The notes: generated from the letters alone by a model not told the origin. Counted from the stretch's first letter, positions 3,975 through 59,100 are shown. The stretch is 64,000 nucleotides of DNA from an uncultured virus (IMG/VR IMGVR_UViG_3300035511_000224) (IMGVR_UViG_3300035511_000224), one strand, 5' to 3'. A program made the numbers and translations.

Positions 3975-4098
3975 GAAAAAGCCGTGCAGTGGATGTCCGC
4001 TCGCGCGTAACACCATCAACGGACTCTACTGCACACGTCTAGGTATCATGACAGAATATTCTAATACAAAACCGTGTAACCCTTAAACAAAATCAATC

Positions 4099-33548: not shown

Positions 33549-33971
33549 ATGAAGTCTTTCGGATCAATTTTAGCTTTTACACGTGAACGTAATGCTGCAC
33601 TACTTAAAGCTTACCGAAACTGTGTATCTCAAGCATGTTACATTCGCCTCGATGAAATAGGCGATAAAATCGTTAATTCTCCGGCACCTCGCTTTTGGGT
33701 TTCTGAAGAACGTGCTGCTGCGGTTGTTTCTGCTATCATGAGGGGAAAGCCGGTGCTAGACACTATGAGACCTTCCAAACGTGAGATGTTCCAGGAGATT
33801 CATCGTCGTGTTGTCGCGCTTCGTGAGCAACATCCTGATTGGCATTTGTCTGAACTGGTCTACGAAGTCGTTAACTCCCCTGCGCCAAAGTTCTACATGG
33901 AGGCTTCATCCGCACTTGAAAGACTTTTCAAGATTCGTAACGGATTCTATAATAATGGGAAGAAGTGTTAG
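33549..33971 (+). CDS. hypothetical protein with internal duplication (possible DNA-binding protein)
   Basis: IVNSPAPRFWVSEERA / VVNSPAPKFYMEASSA repeat; overlaps terL start. Confidence 0.65.
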   Translation: MKSFGSILAFTRERNAALLKAYRNCVSQACYIRLDEIGDKIVNSPAPRFWVSEERAAAVVSAIMRGKPVLDTMRPSKREMFQEIHRRVVALREQHPDWHLSELVYEVVNSPAPKFYMEASSALERLFKIRNGFYNNGKKC

Positions 33972-36066
33972 TGATATAATAGCCGAGAATGACAAACGAT
34001 GCGATAATATGTTTTCCCGATTCAACCCTATTACAGGGGAGGGGTCGGTAGGAGAGCGTATTCTTGTATCTCTTCCTGATTTTCCTATCAACAAGATGTG
34101 GCTGCCAAAATCCATGATGGATAATTCCTTTATCAAGGAGCTTATTAGCAATGAAGGTGTGGACGGTCTGTTGCGCTCCATGGGCGTTGAGCATCCGGAG
34201 GCCGAGGATAGGGAAGCTGTCTTAGACCGCTATGTTCGTCTCCGTTCCCTTCATGATTTTCCATTCTGGGCTGCAACCTTCGTGTACATCAAAAACAAAG
34301 AGGTGGGTCAGCCTGACTGCCTTTTTCGATTATCATATCCTCAACGTCGTTTCGTAGCGATGCTTGAATCCATGCGCTTGGCCAATCAGCCTATTCGCAT
34401 TATATTGCTCAAAGCACGTCAGTGGGGTGGCTCTACAACTTCTCAACTGTATATGGCTTGGCTACAACTGGTTCATCGTACTGGTCTTAACTCTCTTATT
34501 GTATCCAACTTCAATAAAGGTTCTGAGACTATCAAAGGAATGTTTAAACGTATGATTGATGCATATCCGGTCTCCATGCTCCATGAAGTGGGGGAGGTTT
34601 ATTCCGAAAATGAAGATAAGCTCGTGGGCGTTGGTCGTTCCGGTCTTACTCAGCTTGTACCGCAACGTAATGCTACAATCTCCATCGGTTCCGCCGAGTC
34701 TCCGGACTCCTGTCGTGGTGGCGACTATGCGTTGGTACACCTTTCTGAGGTAGGACTGTGGAAAGCTACAGACGGAAAGAGGCCCGAGGATATTGTCCGC
34801 TCTGCCTGCTCCGGTGTGTTGTATCGGCCATATACGATGATTGTCTATGAATCAACAGCTAATGGCGTTGGTAATTTCTTCCACAATGAATATGTAGCGG
34901 CGAAAGATCCGAACGTGAAATCGCAGTTTTCTCCGCTCTTTATATCGTGGTTTGATATAGAACTCTATCAGCTACCTTTCTCTTCAAATGAAGAAATGAA
35001 GACCTTTGCAAAAGGGCTCTACACGAATCGTAATAATACTTTTGCACCATCCGACCGTGAGGAGTCCGGTAAATACTTGTGGTGGCTGTGGCAAATTGGA
35101 GCTACGCTGCAAGGTATTCATTGGTATGTGGAAGAACGTGCAAAGTATCACGATCATGGTTCTATGGCTTCTGAGTATCCGTCAGACGATATTGAGGCTT
35201 TTGTAAATTCAGGCTCTGCCGTGTTCGACAAATATGCTGTTGAGGCTCTTCGTCCTACCACGAAACAACCTCGTTATGTTGGGGATGTTTATGCCTATGG
35301 TGATGAGGGTGAAGATGCTTTACGTGAGCTTCGCTTCAAGGAAGATTCACAAGGTCTGCTCAATGTATGGAACCTGCCAGACGTGCATAACCCTAACGAC
35401 ACTGAGGAAGTGACTGACCGCTATCTTACGGTTGTCGATGTCGGTGGACGTTCTCACACTGCCGACTGGTCTGTTATTGTGGTATTTGACCGATTGCTCC
35501 AGATGGGCGGCGGAAAGCCTGCTGTCGTTGCTCAATGGTATGGTCATATAGATATGGACTTGCTTGCCTGGAAAGCTGCTCAGATTGCAGCCTTCTACGA
35601 CAATTCCCTTCTCGTTATCGAGTCTAATACACTCGAGACGCACGATCGTGAACGCGATGTGGATGGTGACCAGTCGGCGGCAATCCTCAACCAAATCAAA
35701 GATATTTATCCAAACCTGTATGCACGTAAGCAGTCGGAGGATGCCATTATACAAGGGCTTCCTATACGATATGGTTTCCATACGAACGTGGCCACCAAAC
35801 CGATGATTATCTCAACACTTGTTAAGGTGATACGTGAAGGACTTTACATCGAACGTGATAAGCGATGCATTGATGAGTATTTGAATTACGAGAAGAAGCC
35901 TAACGGCTCTTTTGGAGCTAAAGTCGGTACACATGATGACCTTCTTATGACTCGTGCCATCGGTTTGCATATCAGCTTCTACGAAATGCAACTGCCGCAG
36001 ATCGTAACCTGCGGCAGTCAGTCTATTTCTTATAATCGTAAAGTAGTCTCTGCGGCTTCTTTTTAA
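33955..36066 (+). CDS. terL: terminase large subunit
   Basis: LKARQWGGST, HLSEV, YESTANG ATPase motifs; VDVGG and HDDLLM nuclease motifs. Confidence 0.9.
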   Translation: MGRSVSDIIAENDKRCDNMFSRFNPITGEGSVGERILVSLPDFPINKMWLPKSMMDNSFIKELISNEGVDGLLRSMGVEHPEAEDREAVLDRYVRLRSLHDFPFWAATFVYIKNKEVGQPDCLFRLSYPQRRFVAMLESMRLANQPIRIILLKARQWGGSTTSQLYMAWLQLVHRTGLNSLIVSNFNKGSETIKGMFKRMIDAYPVSMLHEVGEVYSENEDKLVGVGRSGLTQLVPQRNATISIGSAESPDSCRGGDYALVHLSEVGLWKATDGKRPEDIVRSACSGVLYRPYTMIVYESTANGVGNFFHNEYVAAKDPNVKSQFSPLFISWFDIELYQLPFSSNEEMKTFAKGLYTNRNNTFAPSDREESGKYLWWLWQIGATLQGIHWYVEERAKYHDHGSMASEYPSDDIEAFVNSGSAVFDKYAVEALRPTTKQPRYVGDVYAYGDEGEDALRELRFKEDSQGLLNVWNLPDVHNPNDTEEVTDRYLTVVDVGGRSHTADWSVIVVFDRLLQMGGGKPAVVAQWYGHIDMDLLAWKAAQIAAFYDNSLLVIESNTLETHDRERDVDGDQSAAILNQIKDIYPNLYARKQSEDAIIQGLPIRYGFHTNVATKPMIISTLVKVIREGLYIERDKRCIDEYLNYEKKPNGSFGAKVGTHDDLLMTRAIGLHISFYEMQLPQIVTCGSQSISYNRKVVSAASF

Positions 36067-38064: not shown

Positions 38065-38107
38065 CAAAGTTAATCGCCCTCGACACTCGTTCATCTTTAT
38101 CTCTTTA
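38065..38107 (-). promoter_or_regulatory. late-type promoter of portal, -7 element within a hairpin
   Basis: TAAAGAGATAAAGA-N21-TAACTTTG; stem 38055-38065/38076-38086. Confidence 0.7.
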
Positions 38108-41100
38108 CTTGCTCACTGGCTGGTGAAACTGCTGATACTTACTAGAAAAGTCTTGCATAAGGCTCGAAATCTCTAGGATAGAGCTTTGTTGCTCCTCTGC
38201 AGTTTCTGCGCTTAATGCTTTCACCATGCTAGCGCGATAACTCTTTAATGTCTCTGCTATTAGAGAGACCTCACCTGGAGTCTGTGCTTCAAACAACATT
38301 TCACTTACCCTTGTCAGATTCTTGTCCAATGCGTCAAAACGTTGGTATAAGTCATAGTCAGGCAACTGCTGTAATTCTGCGAATTTTTGTGCTCCAGATA
38401 AATAGTCGCTCTTCATAGGCTTCCGAGCTTTTGTAACCTCTTTTGAAATGGCGTCATGTCTTTCTTCGAAGTCTGCATAAGCCTTTCGTACTGATTCGTC
38501 ACCTTGAGCATCCAATCTCTCCTTCATCTTTTTATCGGCGGATTGTTCGTACTTATCAAGCCTATCTTCATCACTCCAGCTCCAAGGCGCAAACGGTGTA
38601 CCACGCTTTACTTTATAAGTGGCATATCGTTGTGCCAATTGCTTAGGCGTCAACTTACTCGCCTCTTCTCCGCTTAGATCAATCTCGTCAAAATATAATT
38701 TGTCAAGTTGGCTCTGCGGAACTTGCATAATGCGCATAACGAACATTGCTGCTTCATTGGCCAATGCAGGATCATCCCCACAAGCATCCATGATAGCCAC
38801 AGCGGTGTCGGTAATGCTCTGAGGATTGACGCCGATACCGGACTGAACTAACAGGTTGAACATGTCGTTAAATGCTTCTGCATTCTTTCCTCCTACGAAC
38901 TTGTTGATGATTGCATTGATGTCACTTGCCAACGGCATATCTTTGGTGAGCTGGTTTGTATTCCACTCTCCACTGACAGCCATGTTGCCAAAGGAACTCA
39001 TCACGTCACCACCGGTAAGTCCTTCGACACTACCGAATAATGAGTGTGTCATTGCATCATCCCACATCTTATTTTTCTCGTCATCATTGTTGCCAAAGAT
39101 GAGATAGGGGAGGTATGGACCAAGGTTCCACGCTAATTGCAAGATTGCTCCAAAGGTTGCTACTCGCATCACATCTTTCTTCATCTGCTTGTTGAATCGC
39201 TTATTAGCGGCTTCTTGTGCACGTCCTTTTTGCTCATCCGTAGCATCGTCCGGATTGGTACCCCAATCGCGAAGTATCTGCTTGGTCATAAATTCGACAC
39301 TCTCTTTTCGCTGACCAGATGTAAGATTCCGTTTAAGATTCCTTATTGCATCAAACTCCTGTCTGGTGTACGACATGGAGGAGTTACGGAACACGGTAAA
39401 CAATACGCTCGGCCATGAACCGTCAACTTGCATCGTAGATAGGAAAGGTGCCTCGCTTGACTGCTGAGTCTGATTGAACAGGATTGTAGCATCCTGCTTA
39501 GCTCGTTCCTCTGCAATCTCATCTGGATAGCCCTCTCTGATATATTGCTTCAGTCGCGTCTCATACATGGCTTTTGCACCTATGCTGACAGTGACTGCAT
39601 CGACAAATGCATTAGGCGTCATACCTACACGTGCGGAGAGTTCCATAAGACGGCTGCGCCACATTTTCCAATCCATGTTGGATTTGAGGAGTCGTGGGTC
39701 ACCGCTTATTCTCGAATGCCAACGTTCACGGAAGATAGGCAGGTTATTCAAGCACCATTTGAAGTCACCGTAAGGATTAGCAATGCTCTTGGCAATGCTT
39801 CTGATGCTTACCTCGGGACCGTATGCCGGAGCAGAAAGCAACTGCTTCAATGCCGTGTAAAGGCGTAGGCTTACCTTAGCGGCTGTTACACCCTTGGCGA
39901 TATTCACCATGCTCTTGTCAAGCTTGGCTACCGGTGGGCGATATTCGCCTGCTGCCATTAAACATAAGTCGTTGAAGTTCTTCCACAACGTACGTCCTCC
40001 GCCATAGGCTGTTGTCATGTTGATTACCTGGTTGCGGAAATGCTTATAGGTACGCAGGGTGTTGAGGTCTCTATTCCACTCTGCATAAGCATTCCAATGC
40101 TCCATTTGTGTAATATGGTCCAGGATCACACTCAAAGCGTCGGCGCCGGTGATGTCAAGAGCTAAGTTGTTCACTCTACGCTTGATAATACTGCCAGTCT
40201 TGGTGGTGATACCGTCTGGGCGGTTTGGCTGATTGACATCTTCCTCTTTGTCGATTCTCGCATTGGCAAGTATCTTCAATGGGAAGTAGTTTTCTATAGC
40301 TGCCATAGAGGCACCAAACATACGTTTGTGTGTCTCATTATACTCATTACGGGTATTAATCAGGAACTCATCCTGTAACCAATCTCCGAGTTCTTTCATT
40401 CGTGGATCTAAGAAGTTCTCAATCTGTTGGATGTTGTCCTCTGTGATACCCATTCTGCGGAGCTTCATTCGTCCATCAGACATCTTATCTACCATGTATA
40501 TGTAGAGCAAATTACCCTGAGTTAACTCGTGGTCTCGCATCTCACCACCGTCCCAAAATGAAACGTAGGCTTTTGGCATATTGCGCTCCATGCGGATGAT
40601 CTTACCCCATGTTGTACCTTTACCAAAGAGTTCCTCCGCTTTAGCGTCAAGTTGAGCAAACTTGTCCTTCACCCCAACTAATTCTTTGTTACGGCTGTCT
40701 ACCCAACCACGCATGAAGCGATTCCATAAATAACCTTCGCCATTAGCACTCTTATTTCCAAATACACGTAATACCTGGTCAAATGTGCTAAGTGGCGCAA
40801 ACAAGAATTGCATAAATCCATTGTTCATCCACTTGTCTTTCCAGTCATCTTTATGGTGTTCGTTTGTAGGACGTCCCTCCATATCACTGTTGGCATTGTG
40901 ATGAATATTTTGCACTCTCGTTTTCTCGGCTTCTCTAAATGCTTTAGCATTCTCGACGCTATTACGCAAGCTTTCACTAAACTTGCTTACGAGATTGAAA
41001 TAAGCTTCTGCTCGTTCAATCTTATTCTTACGTATGGCGTCTTCTGTGCTTTCTACAAATTGGTTGTAAGCATCCTTCGACATGCGGCCGGCTTCTTTGT

Positions 41101-44100
41101 CCTCCTTGGCTGTCTTGAGTTGTTCACGTAAGGCAAGCTCTTCATCTCTGCTTTGTTTTATGTTTTGTACATAGTCAAGAGCCATATTCAGACCGGAATA
41201 TTCTAATGTTGCTTGGTCTGCAATGGTTTGGTCAGGGTCACTCATTCTGTTCATAGCTTCGTCAATACGGTCGTTGATGTCATCTTCATTGAGTGACATC
41301 GCTCTCTTGGCTACTTCCATAGTGCGTTGGCCATCAACATCGAGAACACCTTGTACCTCAACACCACTTGCGTCAACCTTGCTTCCTTTAATGGTCAATA
41401 ATTTCTTGAGCGTTGCTTCACCGTTACGCAACTGATTATTGACCATGATGTCCATAACCTTCTGCGTACTATCTTTGACGTCCTTATGTCCTACTGAGTT
41501 CTTTACGGCAGACAACAGGCGCTGCATCTCACCACTAGTTACACCGCTAAGATAACCGTTCTGCATAAGTATTCTAGCCAGGTCAGCAACTCGCTTCACT
41601 GTGCTTTGATCAAATCGTTTCTGCAATGCCATTGCTTTGAGTAGGTTGGATAGATTTCCACCAATAGCATGCATGGCGTCATTGCGAAGTGTCAAGTCAT
41701 CACTCTGATTGTTGCTGAGGCGCAGGGCTGCATTTGTGATGCGTTCCTCCAGTCCTATGCTACGGTCGTTCCAAATATCACCGGTCTCACTTTCTCTAAA
41801 AAGTAATTTTTCTCCAGAAATTTTTGGATTCTCAAAACTTTCAATTATTTTTGCAGTGTTATCCAAGTCAAGGTATTCAACGTCAGCGAGATTCGTTCGC
41901 TGTTTGTCTATCAAGGCTTGGATTTTTTCTTTGTTTAGATACTGCGCTTTGCCTTGATTAACCCAATTGAGCCACTCTGCGGTGTCTTTATTGAATAAGC
42001 CTCGAATTGATGCCACCTCAATACCATTATGCTGTTGCTTGAAATGAACTCCGACAACAAACTTCTTGCCATCGCGCTCCAACTCAACAATTACATTCTC
42101 AGATTTTGTTTTATCTCCATATTCAAACACTGCAATAGGATTTTGCAACGCTTCAGGAAGGCCTTTTATATCGGCAATGTTGAACAGATGATTACGTTGC
42201 TCTGACTTTTCTGCCAATCGCTTTGCGGTTAATTCTATCGGCTGGTCCGGGAATCCTGCTGATTTAAGCACTGCTCCAGGCTTGCCTAATTGATAGATAT
42301 GCTCTTTCGGCAACGTCCCAGCAATTTGCTGCTCTAACTCGTTGTTAAATTTCTCGTTGACGTGTTGCAGTTCCTCGTGCTCGGATTGTGCTTTATTGAA
42401 CACAATACTCTCTTTGTCAATGCCAAGTTCTTGGCGCTTGGCTGCATCTCGAGCCATGTCAACAAAGCTATCCTTGCCGGTTAAACGCTCGTGACTGCGC
42501 CATGCCATATAGCGAAGCTCATTGTCTCCAAGCTTAACCCACTTAGGCAACTTCATAGTACCAAGGAATTTGTTGATTGCTTCCAGAACTTTCGTTTTGA
42601 GCTTTGCCCATATACTGCGCTCTGCTCTTGTAAAGTCCTCAAATCCTTTTTGGCTCAAACGTGCAATCAGCTCATCAACAGCTTCACGAATGGCGCTCTT
42701 TAGTCCTCTTCCAGGATCCTTCATGAAACGACGAGTAGCATCCTTGTCAACTTCCTGTTTCAGCTCATCATTAAGATGGTCATAGATTTCATCGCAAAAT
42801 GCATCATAATTCTCATCGCCAACAAGTTCACGAAGTCCTTTGTGACCAACAACCTCATGGAATACAGTAGCAGCCACATCTTCAACATCCTGATGGTTCG
42901 GTATAACTACAACTACCTCTCCAGTCTTAACATTGTAGAAGCCTTTGTTTCTGCGCATTGCTTCTTGTGTCTTAGCGTCGCTGTGCGTCAACTCATTCGT
43001 GTCTGTCACAATACGAATGGGTGTGTTGAGCTTCTTGGCCAAGCTCTCAGCATAGCTCTTTTTAGCTTCATCTGAGGTCTGTGCCATCTCTGCTTGCTTA
43101 GCATTAATACGTTCAATCTCCTGGTCCTTAACATATTCAGCCTTGCCAAAGTCAGGATTCCCAGGAACTGATCCGGACGCTTTTTCACTTACTTTCACGC
43201 CAAGTCGTTCAAGTTCTTGACGGACTTGCGGCTGTACTGTATTGTACGGAATCTCAATATCGGTACCTTCAAGCTGCTTGGCTATCATTTGTGCCACTTC
43301 GCGATATGGAACTATGCGAACAGGCTTGTCGTAGCGGCTGAGTATAACGCGACGTGGGTTGCCGAGGTCAGCAAGTTTACCACTTACGGAACCACTATGC
43401 CATGCTATTTCGCCAACAGGGTTCTTTGCCATTAAGGCTCTATAACCGCTAGTCAACTCACTCTCGGGTATTTCAACTTCTACCGTCACAAGATTCGGAC
43501 GGATGTGAGCCGATGTAAATTGGTCGTTGAGTGCAGTGCGTGAAGCGTGTATATACGGATTATAGGCAACTGTTACGGTACCTTTACTTAAGCCCTTGTC
43601 GATGGTAACAATGCCCTGTTCCAATCCATCTTCACCCATCTTTGTACTCTTGATAATTTCCGGATGCTCTTCAGCCTGTTCTGGAACACCTAATCTGATT
43701 TCCGGAGTATTCTTTCCGCCAACCTTCGTCGCCATTGGTGAATACAGTTTGCCGTCTATAACCTGCATGGTGCGGTATGCTTTTACGGTTTTACCTTCAG
43801 CAAACTCGCTAAGAACATTTTCATCTTCAACAGATCTGAAACGAATATCGGGGACGTCTGCACCACCGTAGTTGCTACCAGGTTCATGAAGGATACCCTC
43901 ATCGTTGGCACTTCTGGTGAAGTTGCCTTTTACCCTCACGACATCAAGCAAGTTAATACCACCATTGCGTTCCATCGCGGATTTCATGTTCTGATAGTCA
44001 ACTCCTTGCTCTTTGGACATATCAAAATCACCGTAAAGAATTGCGCGCTGTCCACCAAACTGTATTACATTGTCAGTGATATAGCGTGCTTTCGCGTCAA

Positions 44101-47100
44101 CGTCTCCTTTTATATCACTGAAAGGAGTGTGGATATTACCCACGATACGTCCTGCTTGTGTGATAATAAGGAAGGAAACCTTGGCGCGGTCTCCCATGCG
44201 GTGAGAGTTCAAGAATGATGCTACGTCCTCGGGACTTGTTACCAACGGTTGTGACATAGGGTCATAATCATCTGCAAAGATTTGCTTGTCAAGAGTGTGT
44301 ACCGTCAATGCGTTCTCCTTTTCCGGGATTCGTTTACGGCCTTCACCTCGCTCACCATCTGTGCCAAATGTTCCATATTTGCCACTCTTTAGGTTGATAA
44401 TAACGCCATGGACAGGTACTTTCGACATTCCTTTAATAGTATTGAGTACAGCAACATCTTGCGATGAACATTTAAGGTTACCGCTCGGATGGTTGTGTAC
44501 AAAATAGACTTCGTCTGGATTAATGCGGCTATATGCCAAAGATGCCGTTGGTGTGTCTGCCATTGTAGCGTTGAATGTTCCCATGCCGAGTTCAACGACA
44601 GTGGGCTTTCCATCTTTCACAAGCACGACAAACGAATGCTCCTTACCAGCTTCCTCCAATGCTGAGAAGATATAAGCCACATCATCTGCGCTCTCGATCT
44701 TTTCTCCACTAGTGAAATTGAAGTTACCGTTTTCTATAAAAACACGTTCGATTTTACAGAACTCTCCGGATTCGTTACTAGGGTTGGTCTTAGGGTTCAG
44801 TCGATTATTACGTCTATCTTGCAGGGGATTTTCTTCCCGTTGTACTCCATTGGCTCCGGTGCGCACAACATCGCCTCTGCCTTCTTTATTTTCTCCTTCG
44901 AAGTCAGTGCCGGATAAGCTGTCATACCCTTCCGGGTGTTCCGAGCTGTAGTTGATACTATGTCCTTCTTGCGTTTCATATTTACTTGCAAAGTTAGCAT
45001 TTTTCCTTGAACTATAATCTATTTCAGATTCATTCGCTGTCTCTTCCTCTCCATCATCCTCTTCTGTATATTCAACGCCTGTTGCTGCTTGTACATCTTT
45101 ATCCATGTCGGCATATTTCGCTTCCTTCTCAGCCATCTCTTTCTTCATCAGCTCATCGTACTCGTCCAACTTGGATTCAGCCTGTGCAAGCTCTTCCGTG
45201 AATTGGAATGGCTTGCCCTCGCGTAATTCCATGGAATGCAGTTCTTCGTTGTTACGTTCGATAGAGCGTTCAGCACTCTCTATGCGTTCGCGGAAGTCGT
45301 TACCGGTTACTACATTCTCCACAATGTCAGATATAGCATTTTTGATAAGATTCTCTTTCACCGGCATCTTTTCAATACCAAGTTCCTCACAAGAATAGGT
45401 CATCTTGGCAGGAGCCGAGGCAAACAGTGCACCTTGTCCTTGCTTCATCTCCTGTGTAATCTCGGTGTGAATCTTGAAGTCAAAACCTCCGACACTAACA
45501 GTGATGTCCATGTTCGCACTTCTACTGTTGTATCCTGTTCGAACCTGCTCCTGTAACTCGCGTTTCTTTTTGTTCTGCTCGCTAAAGAAGTCCTCCATAG
45601 CGTCAATATTGGCAAAGCTCTGCTTTCCTACCGTGATGTTGCTAATCTCTGCCTTCTCAACTTTCTCCAGGTAGACCTTATTCTCTGCGGCTCTTTGCTC
45701 GGCCTCCTTGTTCTGGCCTGCAATCTGTCTCTTGCGGTTGTGAATATACGTTTGGTCTGCCTCCCAAGCCTTTTGTTTGGCTCTGAGTTTACGGACCTCT
45801 TTCTCTATCTGGTTCTTCATCATAGCATATTCGGATCCTGACAATTGCGCGGTCATATCACCAAACAAGTCCTGGTCCTCTTCCATAGAGCGGTTGTCCA
45901 TGGAATTACTCATCAACTGCTTGCCGTTCATGATAGAGTCAGCTATCGCGCCTTTGGTTTTGAGTCGTTGATAGGCTGTAACGTCCAGTGAGTCTTCAAC
46001 ACCAAAACGAAGCACTTTGACAGGCTTGTTCCAATCTTTGTGCAGGTTACCTTGACGCAAGATACGACCGTTGCGCTGCGTGTAGTCCATCGGTCGGTTA
46101 GGTGCATCAACGTGTATAAGAGTGTTGAGGCGATCTTGAATATTCACACCTGTACCGAGTGTAAAGGTACTACCCAAAATTACACGTACGTCACCGGCAT
46201 TCACCTTGTCAAAGATTTCAAGTTTCTTCTTCACACTCATTCCGGACTTCATTACAACAATCTGCTCGGCAGGTACGCCTTGTGCTATGAGCTTGCTTCT
46301 TATGTCCTCGTACAGGTTGAAGCCTGTAGCTTTGTTCTGATAGTTATCTGCAAAGATTGCCACTGTACCTTTATAGTCCTTGGTCTCTTCGAGAGATTGT
46401 AAGGTCTGTCTAACGGCCTCATTGGTTTTACTGTTCGGATCATCTTCGGCATCTGCTTGCACGAGTCGAGCATCTACGGCAGCGGCTTTCGCTATACCGT
46501 ACATAACAAGTGGAATGTGGCTATTGGCCTTCTTCTCCTTTCCACTCATCTTATCGTATTCGTCAAGCTTTGCATTCACATATTTCAATATACTGCGCAA
46601 TGCTCGCGTCTGAGGCAGGAATATGTCTTGTGCCTTTCCTCCCTCCATTGAAGGTATCTTGTCACTCACGCCACCGGCTTCTCTTGTCAGCACGGTATCT
46701 GCGACTGTTGACCAAATACGCACAAGTTCCGGAAGGTTCACGTAACCGGCAAAGCGGTTGTTCTCCTTTGGCTTGCCGTTCGTTCCAAATTCCAACATCT
46801 GTTGGATATTACCGAAGTTGCGTACAAAATCGTCAAAGTAGTAGATACCATATTCTTTCATCTGGTCAGCAGGCATAAGGTAGCGCATGAACGTCCATAT
46901 CTCGGCCGCGGTGTTACTGATAGGTGTACCTGTCGCAAACACCACGTTCTTACCTCCGGTCTTTTCAAGCACTGACTGTGCCTTCAAGAATACGCCCTGC
47001 GACTTCTTGCTATATGAAGGGTCAACGCCTTTCACACCTCGCTGCATGGCTGTAGCGAATCCGAGGTGCTTGTACTCGTGAGCCTCATCTACAAGGATGG

Positions 47101-50100
47101 CGTCAATGCCCATGCTGTCGAAGTCCTCAACATCATCGGTCTCACGGTCTAGCATCTCTCTTGCCTTGACCTCTGCGTTCTGTCGTGTGACAGCTGCTTT
47201 CTTGGCGTCCTTCTCTTTCTTCTTGTCAGGTACTCCGCCACTAGCGAGCTGAGCAATTTCATCTTCAAGCCTGCTGATTTCACGCTCCGCTTGTTTTACA
47301 ATAATGCTATTTCCATGCGGGTCGGCATTCTTCATCTGTTCCAAGACAAGCATTTTTTCCTCGATTTTGTCTTGGATGAATCGTGTTTGTCGCTCTATAC
47401 TATCTGGAATGCGTTCAAATACAGATTGAGGAACAACAATCATATCCCAATCATTGAACTTAATCTTAGCATAGAAAGCCTTACGGCCCTCCGCATTGCG
47501 GTCGGCATCTTCAAGTGTCAGCACCTTGGCGTTAGGGTACAACGCTTTGGCACTTGCTACGAATTGGCCTACGGTGGCATTCTGTACTACTATCATAGGC
47601 TTTCTTGCAGTGCCGAGTCTGCGCATCTCCATGGCGGTTGTAATAAGAGTGTATGTCTTACCGGTGCCCACCTCGTGTGCCAACAATACTGGCTGTGTGG
47701 TTGCTCTGATAACGGCTTTTGCTTGATGAGGTCTCAACTTGAACGGCTTACCACCTACGACGGTTGCTGCACCTCCGAAGTGCTCCGGAACAAAATCATC
47801 GGGGATTTGCTTCGGAACGGAATTGTTAAACTGTTCGTTGTACTCTTCCTCCATGCGCATAGACATATCAGGGTCTGCTTGCATCTGTTCTCTAGCCCAA
47901 TCTTTGAAGTCTTGACGTATCTCATCAATCTTAGCCATACATGCAGCTGTCGCTGACGGATCGCGTTCAGTCTCTGTGCTTCCGTCTGGCATCTTATATG
48001 TTTTGCTGACAACAATGCTCTTGTTTGTAATGGCAGCTTCTATCAGTTTATGTCCTGGTATAAGGGTTCCAAATGCTTCACTACGGACTCCCATCTCTGT
48101 GTTCTTGGATGTATTTGTATAGAATGGCTCACCCATGTGCCAGGTACCACCGACACTTGTCAGTGTTACATCCAAGTCAGTACGTTCCTTAACAAAGCGC
48201 TCGTACAACTTCGGGTCAATCCAAGACGAGCCAAGTGTGAACTCGATAAGGTGTGCAGGTATATTCATAGGAACAACGGCCTCCAGCGCCTTGATATTGG
48301 CGGTGTAGGCTCCGGGGTTGTCTTTCTCTGCTTCTTTTGCTTGACGCAGTTTCTCACGCACATTGCCACTGAGGTACTCATACGACACTTCCATCTGTCC
48401 GGTGGTCGGATTTTCAAAGCCCAAACCACGTTCCACCATTTCATTCTTTATCTCCTCCTTACTCTTTCCTAAGTGCTCTGCAAGATAGTCGGAGTCAATG
48501 CGGCCAAACTTATACAGACTTGCAATGATACCATCTTTCACATTGGTAGGTGCCGGCTCTGTTTCCTTGTCAACGACACGACGGCTAAAGATGTCGGTCT
48601 TTCCGTACTCTTTAATTTTGCTGCCGTTCTTGTCACCACGCTCCGAGTAGGTCTCAAGCGCGACAATGCTCGAGAAGTCAACGTCGTTGCGCATCCACGC
48701 AAGATTGTTGTTCTTGTTGAGGTTGCCATACTTCTTCACGAAACTGTCATAAGCGTTATTAAGTTTATTAAGCAACGGCTGCAAGCCTTTGTCATCATCA
48801 TGCTCTGTTTGGTATTTCAGGACCTCAGCAAGAGCATCTTTGATGGCCGTATAGTCTTTGAAGCACTCTTGTTTGGTGTGTCCTTTAATCTTATTGTTGT
48901 TTACATCTACAGGTACGGCACGGCCACTTCGAGCGATACAGATGTTGCCATCGCTGTCTAGAACCATGCTTCCTTCTTTCACACCTTCACCAAGAGCTTC
49001 ATTGATGTGTGAAGTCTTGTCTATTTCGGCTCTACTACCTTGCTCGGATTTCCAGTCTTTATCAGCCAGGCTCTTCACCCATGCTGCAATACGTTCCGTT
49101 TGGTCAGCTGAGCGGGTAGGGAAGAGGCCCATTGAAGTTGGACGGTAATTGTCTCCCTGCTCAAAGCCGAAGAACATCTCACCACCCATATTTTCAGGAT
49201 GCTCTATGAAATAACGATTAATGAGCAACGGAAGGTCTCTCGTCTTTCTTCCATCTGTGAATGCTGCGGTACGTGCAGGACTGACCGTGCTCACGTCGAT
49301 GGCATTTGCGCTTCGCTGTCCGTTTACTCGCTTACGTATCACGATGATGTCTGAGGTGGCTGCTGTACCTCCGAATGTTTGATTGTTCATGCGGAATGCA
49401 CCAACGACATCTGCGTTACCTTCATGTTCACCTACAATCCAATTGCGAAGCTTTTGAGATTTGTCGAGTGTACCACTTGAAGTGATGAATATACCGATAC
49501 CTCCTTCACGAAGCTTGCGTACATTCTTAGCGATACAGAAGTCGTGAATGTCGCGGAACTTCTTAGAGAGGTCGCTGTCTCCGCTCTCGTCCATTACGTG
49601 CAAGCCTGTGACGAATGGCACATTGGTGATGGCCAGATCTACCGTACCGTTACCAATATGTGTTTTCTCAAAGCCCTGTACATCCACTTTAGCATCCGGA
49701 TATAGTAACGACAGAATACCACCTGTCATCTTGTCTATCTCGACGGCATGGATATTACTGCGCTCGCTAATGTCGGTCGGCATCAAGCCGAGGATGTTTC
49801 CGATACCGGCTGAACCCTCAACGATATTACCTCCTTTAAAACCGAGTGCTTTAGCAATATCCCACATTGCGTCGATAACAGGTGCAGGTGTATAGTACGC
49901 ACTGTTACGGCTCATCACCGCTGCATCGTACTCCTCCTGTGTAAGAGCTTTGCGAAGCTGCTGGTTGACAGGATTGCGTGACCATGCATTACCTTCATTA
50001 AATGCGGCTCCTAAGCCTCCCCATCCGCTATATTTACGAAGAATGGTCATCTCTTGAGGTGTGGCTGTAGCTCCGCTTTCAAGCAGTTTCTTGGCAAGCT

Positions 50101-53100
50101 CTATCGCTGCGATATTGGCATCTATACGAGCCTTCTCACCTTTGGGCGCATAATCAACACCACGCTCAGCATGGTTGTTGTGCGTGTTCTTCGGCTCCGT
50201 TACGCCTCGCTCGCTCTGATGTAGTCCAGATACTCCTGTGCTTCGTTTGGTGTCAGACACAGGATGCTCTCCACTACGTTCAGCCACTCCTCCTCGGTCA
50301 GTTCGCTCATTTTCATGTGCTGCGCTCTCTCCCAACGATTCATCAGATCGCGGTTGCTGTCTCCCTCGCCCGGTTGTTTCGGTGCTAGGTCGTACGTCAG
50401 TTTTCTCATTGTCGTTATCTTTTTGAGTGTTATTTACTTTATTTTTCGGCTCAACCTTGGATGGCTCTTCTTCTTTTGTCTCTGCAAAAAGAGGTCCAAA
50501 CAAGTCACCAATAGTTTGATTTTGCGTCTCTATCTTCTTAATTCTGCTCCAATCAGCTTTTTCTTTTATCCAATTAGTTCCAAATGAATTAAGGATAGGA
50601 CTTCCATCTTCGTCGAAGTCAACAATCTGCTGTTTCTCCCACTTGCCATTGCCAACTCTGTCCCACATGACATAGTCACCACGTTTGAAGCCGTTGTGTG
50701 TCTCATTCTCTTTAGATACACGCGCTGCCATCTTTACTAAGTCCTCACCAGGGTTAGGTTTCAATGGGGTAGCAGGTTTCACTTTCTCTTCCGGAAGGAG
50801 GTGTCTTATAGCTCTACGCACATCGGCAATCAGTGCATCATAGGTAACATCTGATGTTATATCATGGTTACCGGTGAGGTATCTGTTTTCTCCTCTTCCT
50901 TCCGGATCTTCTGCCCTGAAATATCCTCCTTTGAACACCAAATCGTCTGACGGTCTGTCGGCTCTACCATTGGTAATCCACTTAGAGTTAGGTTCCATGA
51001 ATAGCACCATGCTAAGTTCTTTGCCATTGCCAAGTGGAAGTGTGATTGTCACTTCTCCACCAGCCGGAGCAATATTGCTATGAGCTATCTTGCTACCAAA
51101 GCCATAGCGTCTATCGGCTTTTACCTTGTCTTTGGCATCAATAGCAAGTCCGAGGTCTTTGGCCAACTGTGTCGCAAGCTGATGCGCATCCTGCGTTGCT
51201 TTACGCTCTGCATTGCGCATATAACCAAACATCTCGTTGTAGTCCTTATCAACCTCGTCTGCCTCGTAATATCCGAGCAGGGCAAGCTGTTTGTTTACTT
51301 CCTCTATTTCTTTGTTGATGCTTTGATCGAGTCGCTCGGCATCTTCCTCAGTTGTTGCATTTTCGAGTTTACTTTCGACTTGACTTGCAGTAGTCTCTGC
51401 TTGGTTGACAACAGCTTCTGTATCTGCTGATGTTTTGTCAGCCTCTTTTCTTCTTTGCTCATTACGTTCTTCTTTAATGGTTTCTATTAATTTGTCTGTC
51501 TGTTGTTGAGAAGCATTCTCATCGACTATCTGTTGTGCAGTTCCGATGATGTCCTTGGCTCCTTGCTTATCAAAGTTATAAACGTCGAAAGCCTTAACGG
51601 TCTTTCTGTCGTCCATCTCTTCGTCCCATCCGAGGTCCATTACCTCCTCCATGTTCTGTGTGGCGGCATATAACGGTTTCAGGTGCGGTCTGATGGCTTC
51701 GCCTAACTCATCAACCATTGCTTCTGCATAGTCCGAGAAGGAACGCAGTCCACCCTTCATCATAAGGTATGTCATTCGGGTACCCATACGAAGAACTTCT
51801 GCATCCATCTCTTTAGGCTGCTGTTTACCGTAGCTCACTTCATCTTCTTTGGCGATGTTTGGGATTCCGCCAAGGTGTGAACGCAGACTATTTCGAAGTG
51901 TGTCAAACTCTTCGGCATCCTTGTCGCTAATCCATTTGCGTCTCTTCGGCTTCGTCTCCTCTGCTTGCGGTTGAGGCTTCGGCGCTTGCGGCTTCTCTTC
52001 AACTGGTGTGGCATGGTCGCTAAGCTTGGTGCTTCCCTTCGTGTATAGGGCATTGAATAATCCTTCAACATCTACCTTCTTGACTGTCGGCTCTTCCTCC
52101 TGCTGTTTCTCACTCATATCAGCCATTGAAAGCGGTGCCTGGTCGGCAACCTCGTCCTCGCTTTTACCCATGATGGCATCGGCAAACGCCTGTGCGTCCT
52201 CACGTGTTTTAAATAAGAATCCTTTCTTACCGAAGTTGGACCAATAGCCTCCATGCTCCTTAGCAATAGCTTTCTGACCTTTGAACTCTTCACGGCTCAC
52301 TCGATCCTCAAACTTCACTGCAAAGATGTCCGAGTTATCGCGTGTGTCCTTACGAGGTTCTATGGTGTAGCCTTCGGGTTCTTTTCCCGTTGGGTGCTCG
52401 TCTGTGATTTTGTCAACCTTGGCATAGTCGGCAAAAGGTTTGGTCTTTCGGTGGCTGCTGTCCACCCACTTCTTAAACTCGTCCATGTTCACTTCTGAGA
52501 TACGAAGTCCCGGATGTGTGTCTGCCCAATTAGCATCATAGTTGGCAAGGTACGCCTCCATAGCTGCGTCCTTGTCATTGAAGCCAAGCATAACCTTGTG
52601 CTCGTCGAAGGTGCCGTCACTGTTTGTTTGGTCAACGACGAATGCTTTCTTGCCGTCCCATGACTTGATGTCGTTGGCAAGGAACACATCTATATGGTCG
52701 CCATCCACGCCCTCAGTGCCACGGAAATATCCATAGCTATTCTTCATGGGTGTCTCCCACTGTTTCCCGTTAGAATCAGTGCCACGGCGTACACTGCCTT
52801 GTGTGTTCTCGATGGTAACGTCGAATGGACCAACCTTCACATGGCCCTTCTTATAGTTTCCTGCCTCCTTCTGTGCTTCGGTCGGGTTGTTGTTAACCTG
52901 CTGCTCCGCTTCGGCAATCTTGTCGGCTGTTTCCTCGAGTGGTGACTTCACCTCTCTAGCGCTGCTCTTATCGAACACAATGACCTCGTTAGGCAGTGCT
53001 ACTGCCTCGCGCATGTCTTTGCTTGCGTAGTTGATGATGCCGTCATATCCTTGTTCCTTCAACTTCTCCGTGAAAGCTGCTGCCTCTTCAGGAGTCATGT

Positions 53101-56100
53101 TGGCCACACCTACAGTGTAGTAAGGCTTCTTCAATGTGATGTTTGCCTCAAATACCTTGCCCTCTGTATGTCCGTCACTCGCGTAGTCCTCGGCAACAGA
53201 GCGGTTTGGTGTGAATGATATACCATCACCATTGAATCGTGCAGGAGCTTCTTCGCCGTCACGATGGTGCCCTGGCTCGAGGTCGCTCAATGAATTGACA
53301 TCATCATTTGGTGTACCATGATACAACGTGAGTGTCGTTCCATTAGCGTCAACGATGTTACCATCCTTGTCAACGTTCGTAGGAGTCTGGTCTACATCTT
53401 CTGTCAACTGCTTAATGTTGTCTGCATGCGTTGAACTTTTTTCGTTCTCTGCTTGTTTTTCTGTTGACAAAGTATTAACTTTGCCTTCAGAAGAAACATC
53501 ATCGCCACGAGATTCAAGGCTTATTGCGGATGCAGATTCGTCTGCATGACTGATGGAGGAAGTGCCGCCCTCCGACGATGAACTTTTATGCCGTATGTCA
53601 TCTATCTTGGCATACGGCTCTTTCTTTTGGTTGAATGTAGATTTGTGAAGAATGATTTTACCATTTTCCTCAACTTGGGTAAGTTCAGCAAAATAACGAC
53701 CAATCTTCTTAATAAACACAACGGTTCTCTTCCCATCTACAAACGTTTCTTTGATTGCATCCGGGCTGTCAAGAACAGTTTGAATATTAAGATATTTGCT
53801 TACATCTACATCTTCTACATCAATCTGCATTCCTTCTTGAGCATGATTGCGTAGGGCATGGTCAATGAAATAACCCTTCCCACAGTATATACGTGGGTCG
53901 GAGATATTTGGATCGACGTATGAAAGATATTGTGCAGGTATATATGCTATCGGTTCCGGCTCGTTGCCAAATTCTTCAAAGATTTCTGTACGAGTCTTGC
54001 CAATACCCTTGGTGAGGTTTTCATCAGAGAGCCATTCTACAATACGAGACTGCATCTCTGTCCTTTCCTCACCGCTTACTTCCTGCGGTATAACTCTTTC
54101 ATGTTCGCTCTCATCTCCGCCTGTTGCGCTATCTCTTGCAGTTCTTCCTCTACGCTCGGTCGGTTCTGTTCCGCCCTCAGCTTGTTCTCCACCTTTATAT
54201 GGTTCATTGCTTCCAGGTTCCCCTTCTGTGCTTCCTGTATTACTGAGAGCCACATCAGGACCTCCATTCTTGTCATTGTTGTTTCCATTCTTAGCCGGTT
54301 TATAATCAAAATTAAATACTTTCTTTATTGCCTCCGCAAGAGGGTACAGCGTAGTATCAGCCTCACTAAATAGTGATGCTGCGACTTTGCCCTGTGCATA
54401 ATCAAACATCCGGTTGAAATATGAAGCGATGGTTGTCTGCGACATATCACCTGCTTTATACAACCCTGCGAGATGCAAAGCAAAGTTACTAAAATTATCA
54501 GAAGGTCTGACTTGTTCAGAACGATCATCAAACATTAATTGCCTTTTGTAGTCCTCAATTGCACGAGATGCCTGTTCTAGATTCTTCGCATTCTTAAATG
54601 CTTCGTCACGTTCCAGCTCATTATAAGCCACGATAGATGCTTGTATCTCCGGCAAGGCCTTTCCTGCAAAAGGAGAATCCATGTCGCGGAATGCCGTTGA
54701 CAGAATTGCACGTTGAGCCTTGGCAGGAAGTTTGTCAAACAGCTCCTCTAACTGCGGTGTAGCACCTTTAAATACTGCTTGATACAAAACCTTCTGCAAA
54801 TCATTCTTAGCCTCTGGCGTGATGGCGCCCTTGCTGTTGAATGCCGACTGGTATTGTGTATTACTGATGGCTCCAACTTGATTCATCCATTTCAGAACAT
54901 CGGCACCGTTACTGTCAACGAGTTGGCCGAACGACGCATCTTCATCAGCTGAGCGGAGCAACATATTGGCATACTTGCGCATATCGTCGCCCAACTTCTG
55001 TGCTACGTTCTTCGGCTTGATACGTTCTACGCCACCGCTTTCAGTGTCATTGGCGGTCATCTGACCTAAGCGAATAGCCTCGTTATCGTCCACATCAAGC
55101 ATATTTACGAGGACTGGCTGCTGCTTACTGTTAACGGTTTCTGCATCAATGCCAAGTTGCTCTGCATTGTCGAGAAGGTATTGCTTGTATGCCGCTTGCT
55201 GTTCTGGTAGACTGTTCTCCCACAAGTAACGCAAAGCGTCCGTGCGGTTATTGCCTTGTACCACCTCACCACGAGTGTTAACTGTCGGTGCGCCGGTGTA
55301 AGCGGTTGTGCTACCTGTAATCTCTTCTGGTCTGATGTTCTCGGCAATTTGTTGTGCTGCGAGTGTTGACACGGCCTCTGAGCGGTTCTTTGGCTGTGCC
55401 TCATCAATAAAGTACATCGGGTTGCGCTTACCTTGAATGTGTGAAGGTTGCAGCTGCGATGCCTCAATCACTGCCACACGTCCGTGCGGTATATCTTCCT
55501 GTGAGAACTTGACATTAACCTCTTTGCCAAGCGCTGCATCAGCGATAGGCTCTTGGCGAACGAACAGTTGACCTTGGAACCGTCGCGCACCTCTAGCACG
55601 TGCGTTCTCAGGAGTATCTCTATGCCATTCGGGAATACCTTCAAGTGCTTCACGCTCTTTGCGCTCAGCCTCCTCTTGTGCAGCCTTTGCCTCGCGTTCC
55701 TGTTCGGCTCTCTCTGCTGCAAGTCGTTTTTCTTCGGCTTCTTGCTTACTGCGGATGGCATCTTGCTCACGACGTATCGCATCCTGTCTAGCCTGTTCAA
55801 CACCGGCAATCTTCTGCCACTGTTCAAGCTCCTGCTGAGCCTTGGCGAGTTCTGCGGCATTCTGTCTCTTAGATTGGAGTATCTCGGTTGGAGTCTTGCC
55901 CTTCGATTTGAGTTTCTGCGCTTTCTCGAAAACTTTGCGCTTCTCCTCAACCATAGTGTCGGCAATCTCCTTGGCTGTGTCCTTGTCTCCCTCGCTGAAC
56001 TCGATAAGACCATCCCACGCGACCTCGGGAGTCTCGGCTTGCTCAAAGATAGGTTCACCATTTTCATCACGAGGAATACTTTGAAGCGGTGTCTGCTCTT

Positions 56101-59100
56101 CGGCAGGTACTGCAGGTTGCTGTTCATTTTCTACGGATTGTGAACTCGAAGGTGCGTTTTCTGTTCGCAAATTGCCGTTTTCTGTAATGTTTGGGCCATT
56201 TTCCGTACCAAATTCACCGTTTTGCGTAATATTTGGAGCATTTTCCGTGATATTTTCATTAGTTTCCGTATTTGCGACTTCGGCACCTGACTCCTGTTGT
56301 CTGCGCTGTTGCTCATACTGTAAAGCTGCGACATATCCACTGCCGGCATCAGTCATTTGCTCAGCTTCATTGTTGATGCTTTCCAACTCGGCATTTAGTT
56401 CTTCGTCAGTCATCTTCTCAGCAGACTGCATGCCAGCTGTATATCCTTTCTGGTATTCGTTCGGATCTGCACCCTCAGTAGTCGTTGGCGCCTGAGTGGG
56501 TGTTTCCTCTTGCTGTTTTGTATCTGGTTTGAAGTCTGTAACCATACTATCAAGCTCTTGCTCAGACGCATAGTGCAAGTGACTGAGGTCTCCTTCTACA
56601 TAATACTCATACTTGCCAATCTCGTTGGGAGATAAGCCAAGTTCATCGTAATTATCCTCGGTAACAGTCGTTCCGGTAAGCCATCCTTTAGACTGTGAAC
56701 CATCGCTGTTTTGTATAGAGATTCGTCCTGCACCATACTTCGGCTGTTCTGTAGCTTCCGGTTGCTCGTCAGCTGCTGCTTCGGGTGTAGGTGTAGCCTC
56801 TGTAGTAGCCTCTTCTGCCTTGTAAGGCTCGTAAGACAGAATGTCTTTAGGAGCAACCATCTCCACCTTGCCGGTATTGATGTCACGTATTACAATAGTA
56901 TTGTCGCTCTTCGCGTGATCAACCATTTTACCATCATCGGTCATAACGACATTTCCGCTAAGCACCTCAACCTGTCGGTCCTGGAACTGCATAACGGCTC
57001 GTCCTATCGGCTTCTGTTCCCCGTTAGGTTCATGAGGTTCTCCATTGATGTCACCCTCTGGCTGTGGATCTGGGCCATTGATTGGGCCTTCGGTCGGCTC
57101 ACCACTGTCGGTCAAAAGCTTTTGGTCTTTCAGAAGCTTTTGGTCTGTGACGTCAGTTGCGTCAGCATCTTCAACTGTGCGCTCTTTGGCCTTGTTAGGG
57201 ATAAGCTCGTTGATATATTCTTGAATGGCGCTGTTCTCAGCCTCTGTGCGTCTCCGCTCGTCCTTTCGAATTGCTTTGTCGATGTCAACACCATACTTGT
57301 CATTTATGCGGCCACGCATCTCGTCAGTTATAGTGGTTTCATCATAGTCACCTATAGCCTCGACAACCTTGCGAAGTATGTTCTGCTGTGCCTCGCTAAG
57401 TTGGTCGTTCTTGTCAGCACCTTTAAGATGATTGCGACGTGCCTCTTCGCAAGTGCGGTACACTTGCACCATGTCCCAACCATTCTCTTCGGCAACCTTG
57501 CGACAAGCGTCTTGCAATCGGTTCTCAAAGTAAACAATATTCTGCTGATATTGCTCACCTTTTTCTATCTGGTTGATTTCAGCTTGTCGTTTGATGCGTT
57601 CCAACTCGAGGTCAGCTGCTTTGCGGTCTTTAAAGCTTCGCGAGGTGATAACACCATTTGCTCCTTGCGATTCCACAATGAAGCCTCCGTCACCATCTTC
57701 AATCATCTCTCCACGCATAATTGTAGATGGAGGAAGCTGTTTACCTGTAGCATAGTAGTACATCTTTGCACGTGCTGCTTCACTAACACGATTGTCTTCT
57801 AACATGTCAGTTAAACGGCTTACAATCTTCGGCGCATCTTTTGTGATAAGACTTCCATCAGATGGATTACCTTGTCTCTCGGCGCTCTCTACAAGGCTGC
57901 GGAGGTCTCCATAACCATTGCGTTCCAGTTCGGCCTTCTCGTCCTTTGTCAGTGCCATACCACCGTCTGATGGTGCATCCATGCGCATACGCAGACGGCT
58001 CTCGAAGTCGAGACGATTCTTTGTGCCATTAGTCGGACTCTCGAGCGACTTCTTAAGGTCTCCAAGTACACTTCCTGCTGATTTAATCATGCCCTTAGCC
58101 TTGAAACCTACCATCATGGCCATATTGTCCGTCCATACGTCCATTGCGTCTTGGTCTCCGTTCAACCATTCCGGAACGGAGAAGATGGTACCTTCCAATA
58201 CAGTAGAACCGGTAAACACACTTGCACGTGTGGCAACCTTTCCGACAGTGCTCGACGTGCCTCGTACAAGTTTGTCAGATACATTACCAGACACAGGAGA
58301 CAGCCAACCGATGGCCGCGCCCATCATGCTACCATGAAGAAGTTGTTTTCCAACGGCTCCTGCCGAATATCCTTCATTCATATATCGTCCGCTCTGGTCT
58401 TGGCCCACGATGTGACCTCCATGAGCGAATTGTGTTTCAGCCTCCTTGATACCTTCCATAGCACCGAAGTTGGCTGCGCCACCTACAACACCACTGACGA
58501 TACGACCGGTTAATGTAGTCGCGAACTGGCGTGCAGCGGCGTTTGTTAATGCAGCCGTAGCTCCACGGCCTACAAGATAGCGTCCACCTGCCCACATCGC
58601 GCCCTTTGCGGCAGCACTACCTATACCTCCGGAAATCCATGTGGTTGGATCGAGAGCAAAACCACCCACGGTACCCACAACACCAAGTACCTTGTGTCCG
58701 TCTTGGCGATATTCTTCATTGGCGGCTTCGTATGCTGCCATATCACCGGTTTTACCGGAAGCGGCCAAAACTTCAAATCCTTTGGTGATATTGTTCACCA
58801 TGTTACCATCTGAAATTTTACGTGCAAGGTATTCAAGCTCATTCTTAGGACGGTTCTTCTCGACGGCAAGATCGTACAAGCGCTTATCGGACTGTTGTCG
58901 TGCCATCTCTTCTGCTTTCGTATAAAGAAGGAGGTCATCCTCACCTGGATAACGGTAACGCAGCATCTGATGACAATCGTCGATGAGTGATTGTTGGCCT
59001 TTCTCTCCGAGATTATTCCATGAATCTTCCATTAAGCGGTCAAGATCAAAATTGGTGAGTCTCGCTACATCCATTTGATATTTCAATCCTGTAGCCATCG

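Follow-up and report, generated by a model that had tools for sequence, protein, structure and literature searches.

The window analysed here, the whole stretch of 64,000 nucleotides (nt) from the uncultured virus IMGVR_UViG_3300035511_000224, carries on its minus strand a gene for a polyvalent protein of 7302 amino acids (aa), within which we have identified small open reading frames (ORFs) shifted by one base from the host frame. Judged by comparison with related sequences, two of them, ORF1 and ORF2, are genuine nested genes, where selection acts on the +1 frame and not on that of the host gene. By the same comparisons, the nested-gene layer is real, unannotated and widespread in gut Bacteroidales phages. 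We give a probability of roughly 45% to the reading that the nested products are module-specific inhibitors or antitoxins, expressed apart from the giant protein. The host gene and the ORFs in question are:

38105..60013, minus strand: host gene of the 7302-aa polyvalent protein, DarB-like (phrog_10089)
54076..54288, minus strand: ORF1, nested +1 gene, 70 aa, three helices (ratio of non-synonymous to synonymous changes, pN/pS; disjoint pairs; fold; database relatives)
50200..50409, minus strand: ORF2, 69-aa nested +1 gene for a compact three-helix protein, immediately preceding the methylase module (selection, fold, free-standing copies)
51304..51462, minus strand: ORF4, probable nested +1 gene, 52 aa, basic (codon-position flip; third of 142 windows)
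44797..44979, minus strand: ORF3, unproven +1 ORF of 60 aa (relatives keep the ATG, the stop and the open frame)

A preliminary description of this DNA had proposed ORF1, ORF2 and ORF3 as a nested set of three genes. All three (70, 69 and 60 aa) were found at the coordinates given there, sharing the strand of the giant gene but shifted by one base against its frame, each with an A at position -3, and they are the most protein-like +1 ORFs of that gene, with amino-acid scores (real frame versus shadow frame) of 14.4, 13.0 and 6.6 against 4.1 for the next. As a set, the proposal holds for ORF1 and ORF2; ORF3 is unproven as a protein-coding gene, and a fourth ORF at 51462-51304, named ORF4 here, had been overlooked.

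The comparison set consisted of the best 80 of 208 viral loci matching the methylase region. In a comparison with 12 close relatives, variation was greatest at third codon positions throughout the giant gene except at ORF1, ORF2 and ORF4, where first positions are more variable, as expected where the +1 frame is the constrained one. Calculated from pairs of at least 70% DNA identity, which are not independent of each other, pN/pS had a gene-wide median over 112 windows of 1.37 in the +1 frame and 0.23 in the host frame. This relation is inverted at ORF1 (nested 0.24-0.30 versus host 1.70-2.05), at ORF2 (0.20-0.40 versus 1.57-2.39) and at ORF4 (0.28-0.48 versus 0.79-0.96). Counted over disjoint pairs, changes that are silent in the nested frame alone stood to those silent in the host frame alone as 33:8 for ORF1 (4 pairs), 71:18 for ORF2 (8 pairs) and 49:39 for ORF4 (11 pairs), the last not differing significantly from 1:1. 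When 142 windows of 50 codons were ranked by the share of changes silent in the +1 frame only, ORF1 (0.81), ORF2 (0.79) and ORF4 (0.61) took the top three places over a median of 0.23, and host third positions in these windows were 84-91% identical, against 51% or less in the next nine. Frame-specific purifying selection was therefore found in the +1 frame of ORF1 and ORF2, and ORF3 gave no clear signal. As for ORF4, its ATG and open frame are kept in 10/10 close relatives and it is conserved in 32 loci of the first set; it is probably a nested gene with constraint on both frames.

That such frames are opened by chance through linker composition is very improbable for ORF1 and ORF2, as their host-frame pN/pS exceeds 1 with a +1 frame at 0.2-0.4, ORF2 persists without the host frame, and both receive confident fold predictions. 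AlphaFold returned three-helix models with a predicted local distance difference test (pLDDT) of 94.4 and a predicted template modelling score (pTM) of 0.75 for ORF1, and of 94.9 and 0.80 for ORF2. For ORF3, a chance origin is a serious possibility at somewhat less than even odds. It shows no +1 selection signature, and some control +1 ORFs under conserved host sequence are also open in 9/9 and 10/11 relatives. The ORF3 frame is open from the same ATG to the equivalent stop in 14/14 distinct JAB-bearing loci, one of them identical to the window, and a single-sequence scan for ORF3 together with JAB gave 2 loci. Over its first 18 codons the constraint lies on the host frame (pN/pS 1.19 nested versus 0.34 host), the 12 codons at a Y-N-G-K motif are the only part leaning to the nested frame (0.63 versus 1.09), and its halves, at 0.32 and 0.35, were not outstanding in the 142-window scan. 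ORF3 may be a weakly constrained peptide, or its promoter may serve a downstream product.

The starts of the nested genes carry signals of their own. An A at -3 is described as a Bacteroidetes start signal in the available text of PMC6847099. An A at -12 was found in 15/15 distinct starts of ORF1, 18/18 of ORF2 and 0.81 of 21 of ORF4, compared with 0.39 of 9945 other +1 ATGs; the same A-rich patch precedes the starts of the window's own genes, and the ORF2 start context ranks at the 99.9th percentile. Translation of ORF1 may begin at the second of its ATGs (54276), whose methionine (M5) is invariant. The conserved A-rich context argues against a programmed +1 frameshift, by which the giant protein would be made in shorter forms ending in the nested peptides, with no separate genes involved. 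ORF1 does start exactly at a domain end, and a few database proteins (P0201, P0205) join host and nested frames. Nonetheless, the ATG is retained at the aligned start despite differing host codons, the nested genes have their own promoter boxes and free-standing copies start at ATG, so that we give frameshifting hardly any credence. Around the nested ORFs the host frame is open, with 98/100 profile matches for ORF1, 72/76 for ORF2 and 95/96 for ORF4 lying in an open -1 frame, and 63 of 78 metagenome loci hold nested copies. The host frame also conserves short 'D/S-L-F' motifs immediately upstream of ORF2 (about 50510-50480) and of ORF1 (about 54385-54365); we take them to resemble sliding-clamp-binding motifs.

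Relatives of both genes have already been called as proteins on other contigs, 147 of them ORF1-like and 78 ORF2-like, all unnamed or hypothetical. The cultured phage BKO1-TP3, whose host is Bacteroides koreensis, contains a nested ORF1 homologue (E 2.5e-28) that starts at position 54322 of its record and has a promoter box 182 nt upstream, as well as an 87-aa ORF at 51775 in front of its methylase, and its record annotates only the giant coding sequence (CDS), as does a Parabacteroides distasonis prophage record; the available text of the BKO1-TP3 isolation paper (PMC12694917) makes no mention of DarB. A tblastn search of GenBank phages with ORF2 gave no match. In structural searches, ORF1 had no significant match (best Z 4.4), an ORF1 homologue gave one lead of 0.75 in the atlas, an ORF2 homologue had no usable atlas match, and a Foldseek search of PDB and BFVD with ORF2 gave nothing at E<=0.001. 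TnpV (PF14198) was considered as a relative and dropped, as it matched none of ORF1-3, 35 ORF2-family members, ORF4 or members of other families.

The second line of evidence is the association of each nested gene with a particular module of the giant protein, whose domains are arranged as follows:

54290..55516, minus strand: DdrB-like ParB/Srx module with a C-terminal helical part (PF18763 at aa 1512-1638)
53639..53905, minus strand: PBECR3-like RNase domain (E 6e-5, below the Pfam cut-off), a variable module without ORF1 linkage
52967..53350, minus strand: ART-PolyVal ADP-ribosyltransferase domain (domain match), nested gene absent beside it
52463..52879, minus strand: inorganic pyrophosphatase domain (domain match)
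51548..51817, minus strand: unnamed helical domain at aa 2733-2822, labelled 'GARKF' from a motif in relatives, upstream of the methylase in 195/195 giant-gene segments
46049..50128, minus strand: LPD36-like cap, adenine methylase and SNF2 helicase, the DarB core (domain and PHROGs matches)
44423..44692, minus strand: RadC-like JAB domain (PF04002)
41918..42211, minus strand: MuF-C domain (domain match), nested gene absent beside it

The domains downstream of ORF1, ORF2 and ORF3 are those given in the preliminary description, namely PBECR3-like (E 6e-5, below cut-off), methylase-helicase (PHROGs) and RadC/JAB, respectively. Its assignment of ORF1 to the RNase domain was nonetheless wrong, because the upstream module is constant and the downstream clusters are varied: a single upstream module cluster accounts for 38/39 regions, the 38 downstream regions split into 10 clusters, and a protein-like +1 ORF begins within 60 aa after ParB in 49/50 contexts. 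ORF1 thus travels with the upstream DdrB-ParB module, which in alignment retains its catalytic-type QGN-R motif. The proposed link between ORF2 and the methylase was correct, with the methylase downstream in 31/31 regions, 29 upstream regions falling in 7 clusters, and a protein-like +1 ORF before the methylase in 123/132 contexts. In 4/4 loci with distant ORF2 relatives, these occupy the same nested position, and ORF4 has the same upstream domain in 35/35. These linkage searches were seeded with the small proteins and are thus not biased by the flanks. By these counts, a small gene is tightly linked to one enzyme domain, as in toxin-immunity pairs.

At other domains, protein-like +1 ORFs were counted in 3/4 contexts before kinases, 5/15 at JAB and 12/135 at pyrophosphatases, and a nested partner was rare or absent at metallopeptidase (2/98), ART (0/3) and MuF-C (0/8) domains. 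Not every toxic domain therefore has a nested gene, and the statement that each lies just before a toxin-like domain has to be given up, also because ORF1 follows its module. A separate nested family stands before kinase-like domains (L187 4680-4883; L267, a giant segment, at aa 445; L051 6690-7076) and is fused behind an ORF1 domain in L051 and P0014. At least six further nested +1 families were seen at other module junctions (L086, L110, L064, L049, L164, L268-L270), some of them about 95 aa or longer and strongly acidic.

A third line of evidence comes from promoter boxes. The Bacteroidetes promoter is given as TAnnTTTG, with the transcript starting 4-5 nt downstream and a weak -33 element, in the available text of PMC6847099. 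Three such boxes concern us here:

54481..54488, minus strand: -7 promoter box TAACTTTG, within the codons of the last helices of the ParB module and 200 nt upstream of the ORF1 ATG (28/30 contexts)
54307..54314, minus strand: box TAATTTTG, cited for ORF1 in the preliminary description, present here and not conserved
44989..44996, minus strand: -7 box TAACTTTG, 9 nt before the ORF3 ATG (11/11 distinct contexts)

Both boxes cited earlier, TAATTTTG (54314-54307) and TAACTTTG (44996-44989), are present, yet the one assigned to ORF1 recurs in only 1/18 homologues. The box hidden in the ParB codons was found in 28/30 distinct contexts, compared with 242/1275 sites where the protein permits a box (synonymous-codon background), and at 182-212 nt in 42/47 ORF1 upstream regions; canonical -33 spacing was not seen for it. 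At JAB, the -7 box is present in 14/14 JAB-bearing loci, pushed upstream by an insertion in one. The conserved ParB and JAB boxes point to separate transcription of ORF1 and ORF3 from internal promoters. For ORF2-type starts, a box lies within 150 nt upstream in 23/114 versus 192/5320 random windows, and none such was found upstream of the window's own ORF2. A box at 51578 was rejected as an ORF4 promoter (7/64 contexts, below the 19% background). A sigma-70 scan gave promoters not above chance, and a terminator scan no convincing sense-strand terminator after the ORFs.

The promoters bear on another explanation, in which the nested products would be folding or packaging chaperones that load the 800-kDa protein into the capsid or unfold it, as the P1 Dar helpers Ulx and DdrB might suggest. 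The late mRNA also carries the nested genes, and fusions to the helical domain, described below, suggest direct contact. However, a late assembly factor needs no conserved internal host-sigma promoter, and a chaperone gene standing intact and alone in bacterial DNA would serve no purpose; we regard this role as distinctly unlikely.

Such free-standing genes were indeed found. The 15 non-nested copies among the 78 metagenome loci are frame-broken giants, short contigs, remnants and free-standing copies. In L152, an Alistipes contig (gyrA region), a stand-alone ORF2 shares 89% DNA identity with that of the window, the likeness ending at the stop codon, and differs from it by 14 synonymous and 6 non-synonymous codons. 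In both L152 and L218 the likeness to phage DNA stops at the gene's own ends (in L218 it covers the ORF only). The old host frame has acquired 2 stops in L218 and 1 in L253, and ORF2 has none in either. A stand-alone ORF2 in non-phage DNA resembles, by analogy, orphan immunity genes. Directly after the free-standing ORF2 of L152, two tandem small phrog_19606 genes occupy 3654-4318, possibly forming an orphan-gene cassette with it. The neighbours of L152 and L218 had no PADLOC match; generic PADLOC matches place the L253 copy before a Ser/Thr kinase and the L204 copy near a Fic gene. L202-L204, L159 and L243 have the appearance of decayed prophage fragments.

A profile search across 1.84 billion representatives returned 56 matches, and fusions were found among the database proteins. 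ORF1-like and ORF2-like domains are joined in the single small proteins P0237 and P0250 (ORF1 profile E 3e-11 and 1e-6), which may be likened to poly-immunity proteins. In P0211, P0221, P0229 and P0243, an ORF2-family domain and the giant protein's helical domain share one reading frame as an in-frame fusion, in two of these proteins in an order reverse to that of the giant gene.

Taken together, module tracking, own promoters, the survival of orphans and the small-domain fusions are best fitted by module-specific inhibitors. The linkers of the giant protein carry a second layer of small +1-frame genes, ORF1-type after DdrB-ParB, ORF2-type before methylase-helicase and another family before kinase domains. 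If the inhibitor reading is true, these would be transcribed from internal host-sigma promoters, apart from the late transcript for the giant protein, and in the virion-making cell or the lysogen their products would keep three activities switched off, those of the ParB nuclease/NTPase, the methylase-translocase and the kinase. They could also blunt the same modules when injected by a related phage. The packaged giant protein would enter a new cell without its inhibitors, and nesting would keep inhibitor and enzyme together through module shuffling, the host frame serving as a disposable read-through linker. Perhaps the idea can be carried further, although we hold this extension to be doubtful: giant ejection proteins would be effector arrays with hidden immunity genes, each dangerous module having its own out-of-frame inhibitor in the adjoining linker and a promoter hidden in enzyme codons. 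The lysogen would then be protected from its own and related phages' enzymes, and gut bacteria would have excised ORF2 (L152, L218, L253) as an orphan 'anti-antirestriction' factor against incoming phage.

One challenge to inhibition of the neighbouring module comes from the pre-methylase slot. Where the helical domain is followed by the methylase (204 intervals), an ORF2-family gene lies between them in 126 cases and a member of a second family in 67; the remaining 11 fit neither profile, and among these the 4 distinct ones listed carry a third-type acidic ORF. Families in this slot are swapped among phages whose methylase and helical domains are about 90% identical, which a strict lock-and-key pairing would not predict. 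This observation, and the many more nested families at module junctions, would suit independent accessory proteins, such as anti-defence factors or DNA-binding regulators, housed in promoter-bearing linker slots and directed at host proteins or DNA rather than at the neighbouring domain. Fold matches of ORF2 were weak (best Z 3.9, not significant) and mostly of the helix-turn-helix or homeodomain-like type, ORF4 has a strongly basic composition (15 K+R, 3 D+E), and early expression would be possible with host-sigma boxes. Yet the slots are not arbitrary (49/50 after ParB against 0/8 at MuF-C), the ORF2 family keeps its pre-methylase place down to about 50% methylase identity, and the acidity of ORF2 (14 D+E, 8 K+R) is unsuited to a DNA binder; such accessory roles are, in our estimate, rather unlikely.

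Several further observations weigh against module-specific inhibitors. No dedicated nested gene accompanies ART, MuF-C or PBECR, the domains whose toxicity is most obvious. The identity of ORF2 correlates better with that of the methylase (partial rho 0.51) than with that of the helical domain (0.19), but plain linkage would give likewise; fast trees were non-discriminating, with 8 label changes on both the helical-domain and the methylase tree. The pre-methylase families may be remote homologues of each other (hhalign probability 70%, 25 columns). Searches of Pfam, PHROGs, NCBIfam and PADLOC gave no match above a curated cut-off that would tie any nested product to an immunity family, although a remote kinship is possible. 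The free-standing copies in L204 and L187 lie beside ppdK, where L271 has a related integrated prophage, and are thus prophage remnants; the occurrence of prophages or remnants next to ppdK in three hosts (L187, L204, L271) suggests a shared integration site. Those fusion proteins that were looked up belong to clusters of 1-2 members and come from short contigs. A frameshift artefact could explain P0229 and P0243, and such artefacts do occur among joined proteins, as P0201 and P0205 are clear host/nested frameshift products.

The setting of the giant gene is that of a temperate podovirus-like phage, with portal, large terminase, a capsid-like gene, an integrase fragment and a reverse transcriptase, and relatives in the genomes of Muribaculaceae, Prevotella and Bacteroides among the Bacteroidales. 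The giant gene, of about 22 kb, adjoins the portal gene (PF16510), with a T7 gp14-like gene upstream (PF24072, weak, below cut-off), and combines several conflict-enzyme domains, the methylase-SNF2 dyad included, in one very large chain. From this gene context, the giant protein would be an ejection (internal virion) protein that is packaged in the virion and injected. The large terminase (33781-36066, plus strand) lies on the strand opposite the portal and capsid genes and ends head-on against the portal gene. The reverse transcriptase (19257-20696, minus strand) is found just downstream of a 2800-aa tail-like gene (21176-29578, minus strand), and the pair looks like a diversity-generating retroelement. 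Two DarB-type methylase regions, separated by about 14 kb, occur on one viral contig (L013 + L057), and their pre-methylase nested families differ.

The nested genes account for the odd G/R/E-rich linkers of polyvalent proteins, and the layer that they form could allow a phage to produce and reshuffle potentially harmful enzyme modules in safety. If the products are inhibitors, they would provide ready probes for DdrB-ParB, DarB-type methylase-translocases and phage kinases, the activities of which are mostly predicted, and they would add a new layer of phage-phage and phage-host conflict, testable in the cultured phage BKO1-TP3.

Polyvalent phage proteins, including P1 DarB (methylase-SWI2/SNF2) and the DdrB-like ParB, were described by Iyer et al. 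in 2017 (PMC5512222). The giant protein of the window resembles those covered in the text available to us, sharing DdrB-ParB, PBECR, ART, InPase, methylase-SNF2, RadC/JAB and MuF-C domains and a virion-gene context; the LPD36 label of the methylase cap is one that we infer from the GXGU motif in section 14 of that paper. Unlike what is seen here, its main text describes no second gene layer: 'overlap' and 'frameshift' have 0 occurrences there, and 'nested' appears twice, of a hairpin fold. The unnamed helical domain may be named in its supplementary domain lists. Our search of the literature, with subscription journals largely outside its coverage, found no description of nested genes in polyvalent proteins. 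New in this analysis are the counts of domain linkage, the promoter box hidden in the ParB codons, ORF4, the fusions and the orphans with sharply defined ends.

Embedded out-of-frame genes are known in phages, for example lambda Rz1 in Rz. As in that pair, a small gene lies wholly within another on the same strand in a shifted frame. Here, however, there are several per gene, each linked to a module, swappable by family and provided with internal promoters; and whereas both frames of Rz1/Rz encode structured partners, the host frame here has relaxed to a linker, ORF4 excepted. The P1 Dar helpers Ulx and DdrB (PMC9024508, in its available text) are likewise small or accessory to a DarB-type protein, but they are separate annotated genes, and the likeness drawn here is one of role. 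The Bacteroidales acquired interbacterial defence (AID) clusters, as presented in the accessible part of 10.1101/471110, hold orphan and poly-immunity genes. With these and with toxin-immunity pairs, our nested genes share a small gene next to an enzyme domain, free-standing copies in bacteria and fused partner domains. Unlike AID immunity genes, they are nested within the effector gene itself, match no known immunity family, and belong to an effector that, by its context, would be injected by a phage.

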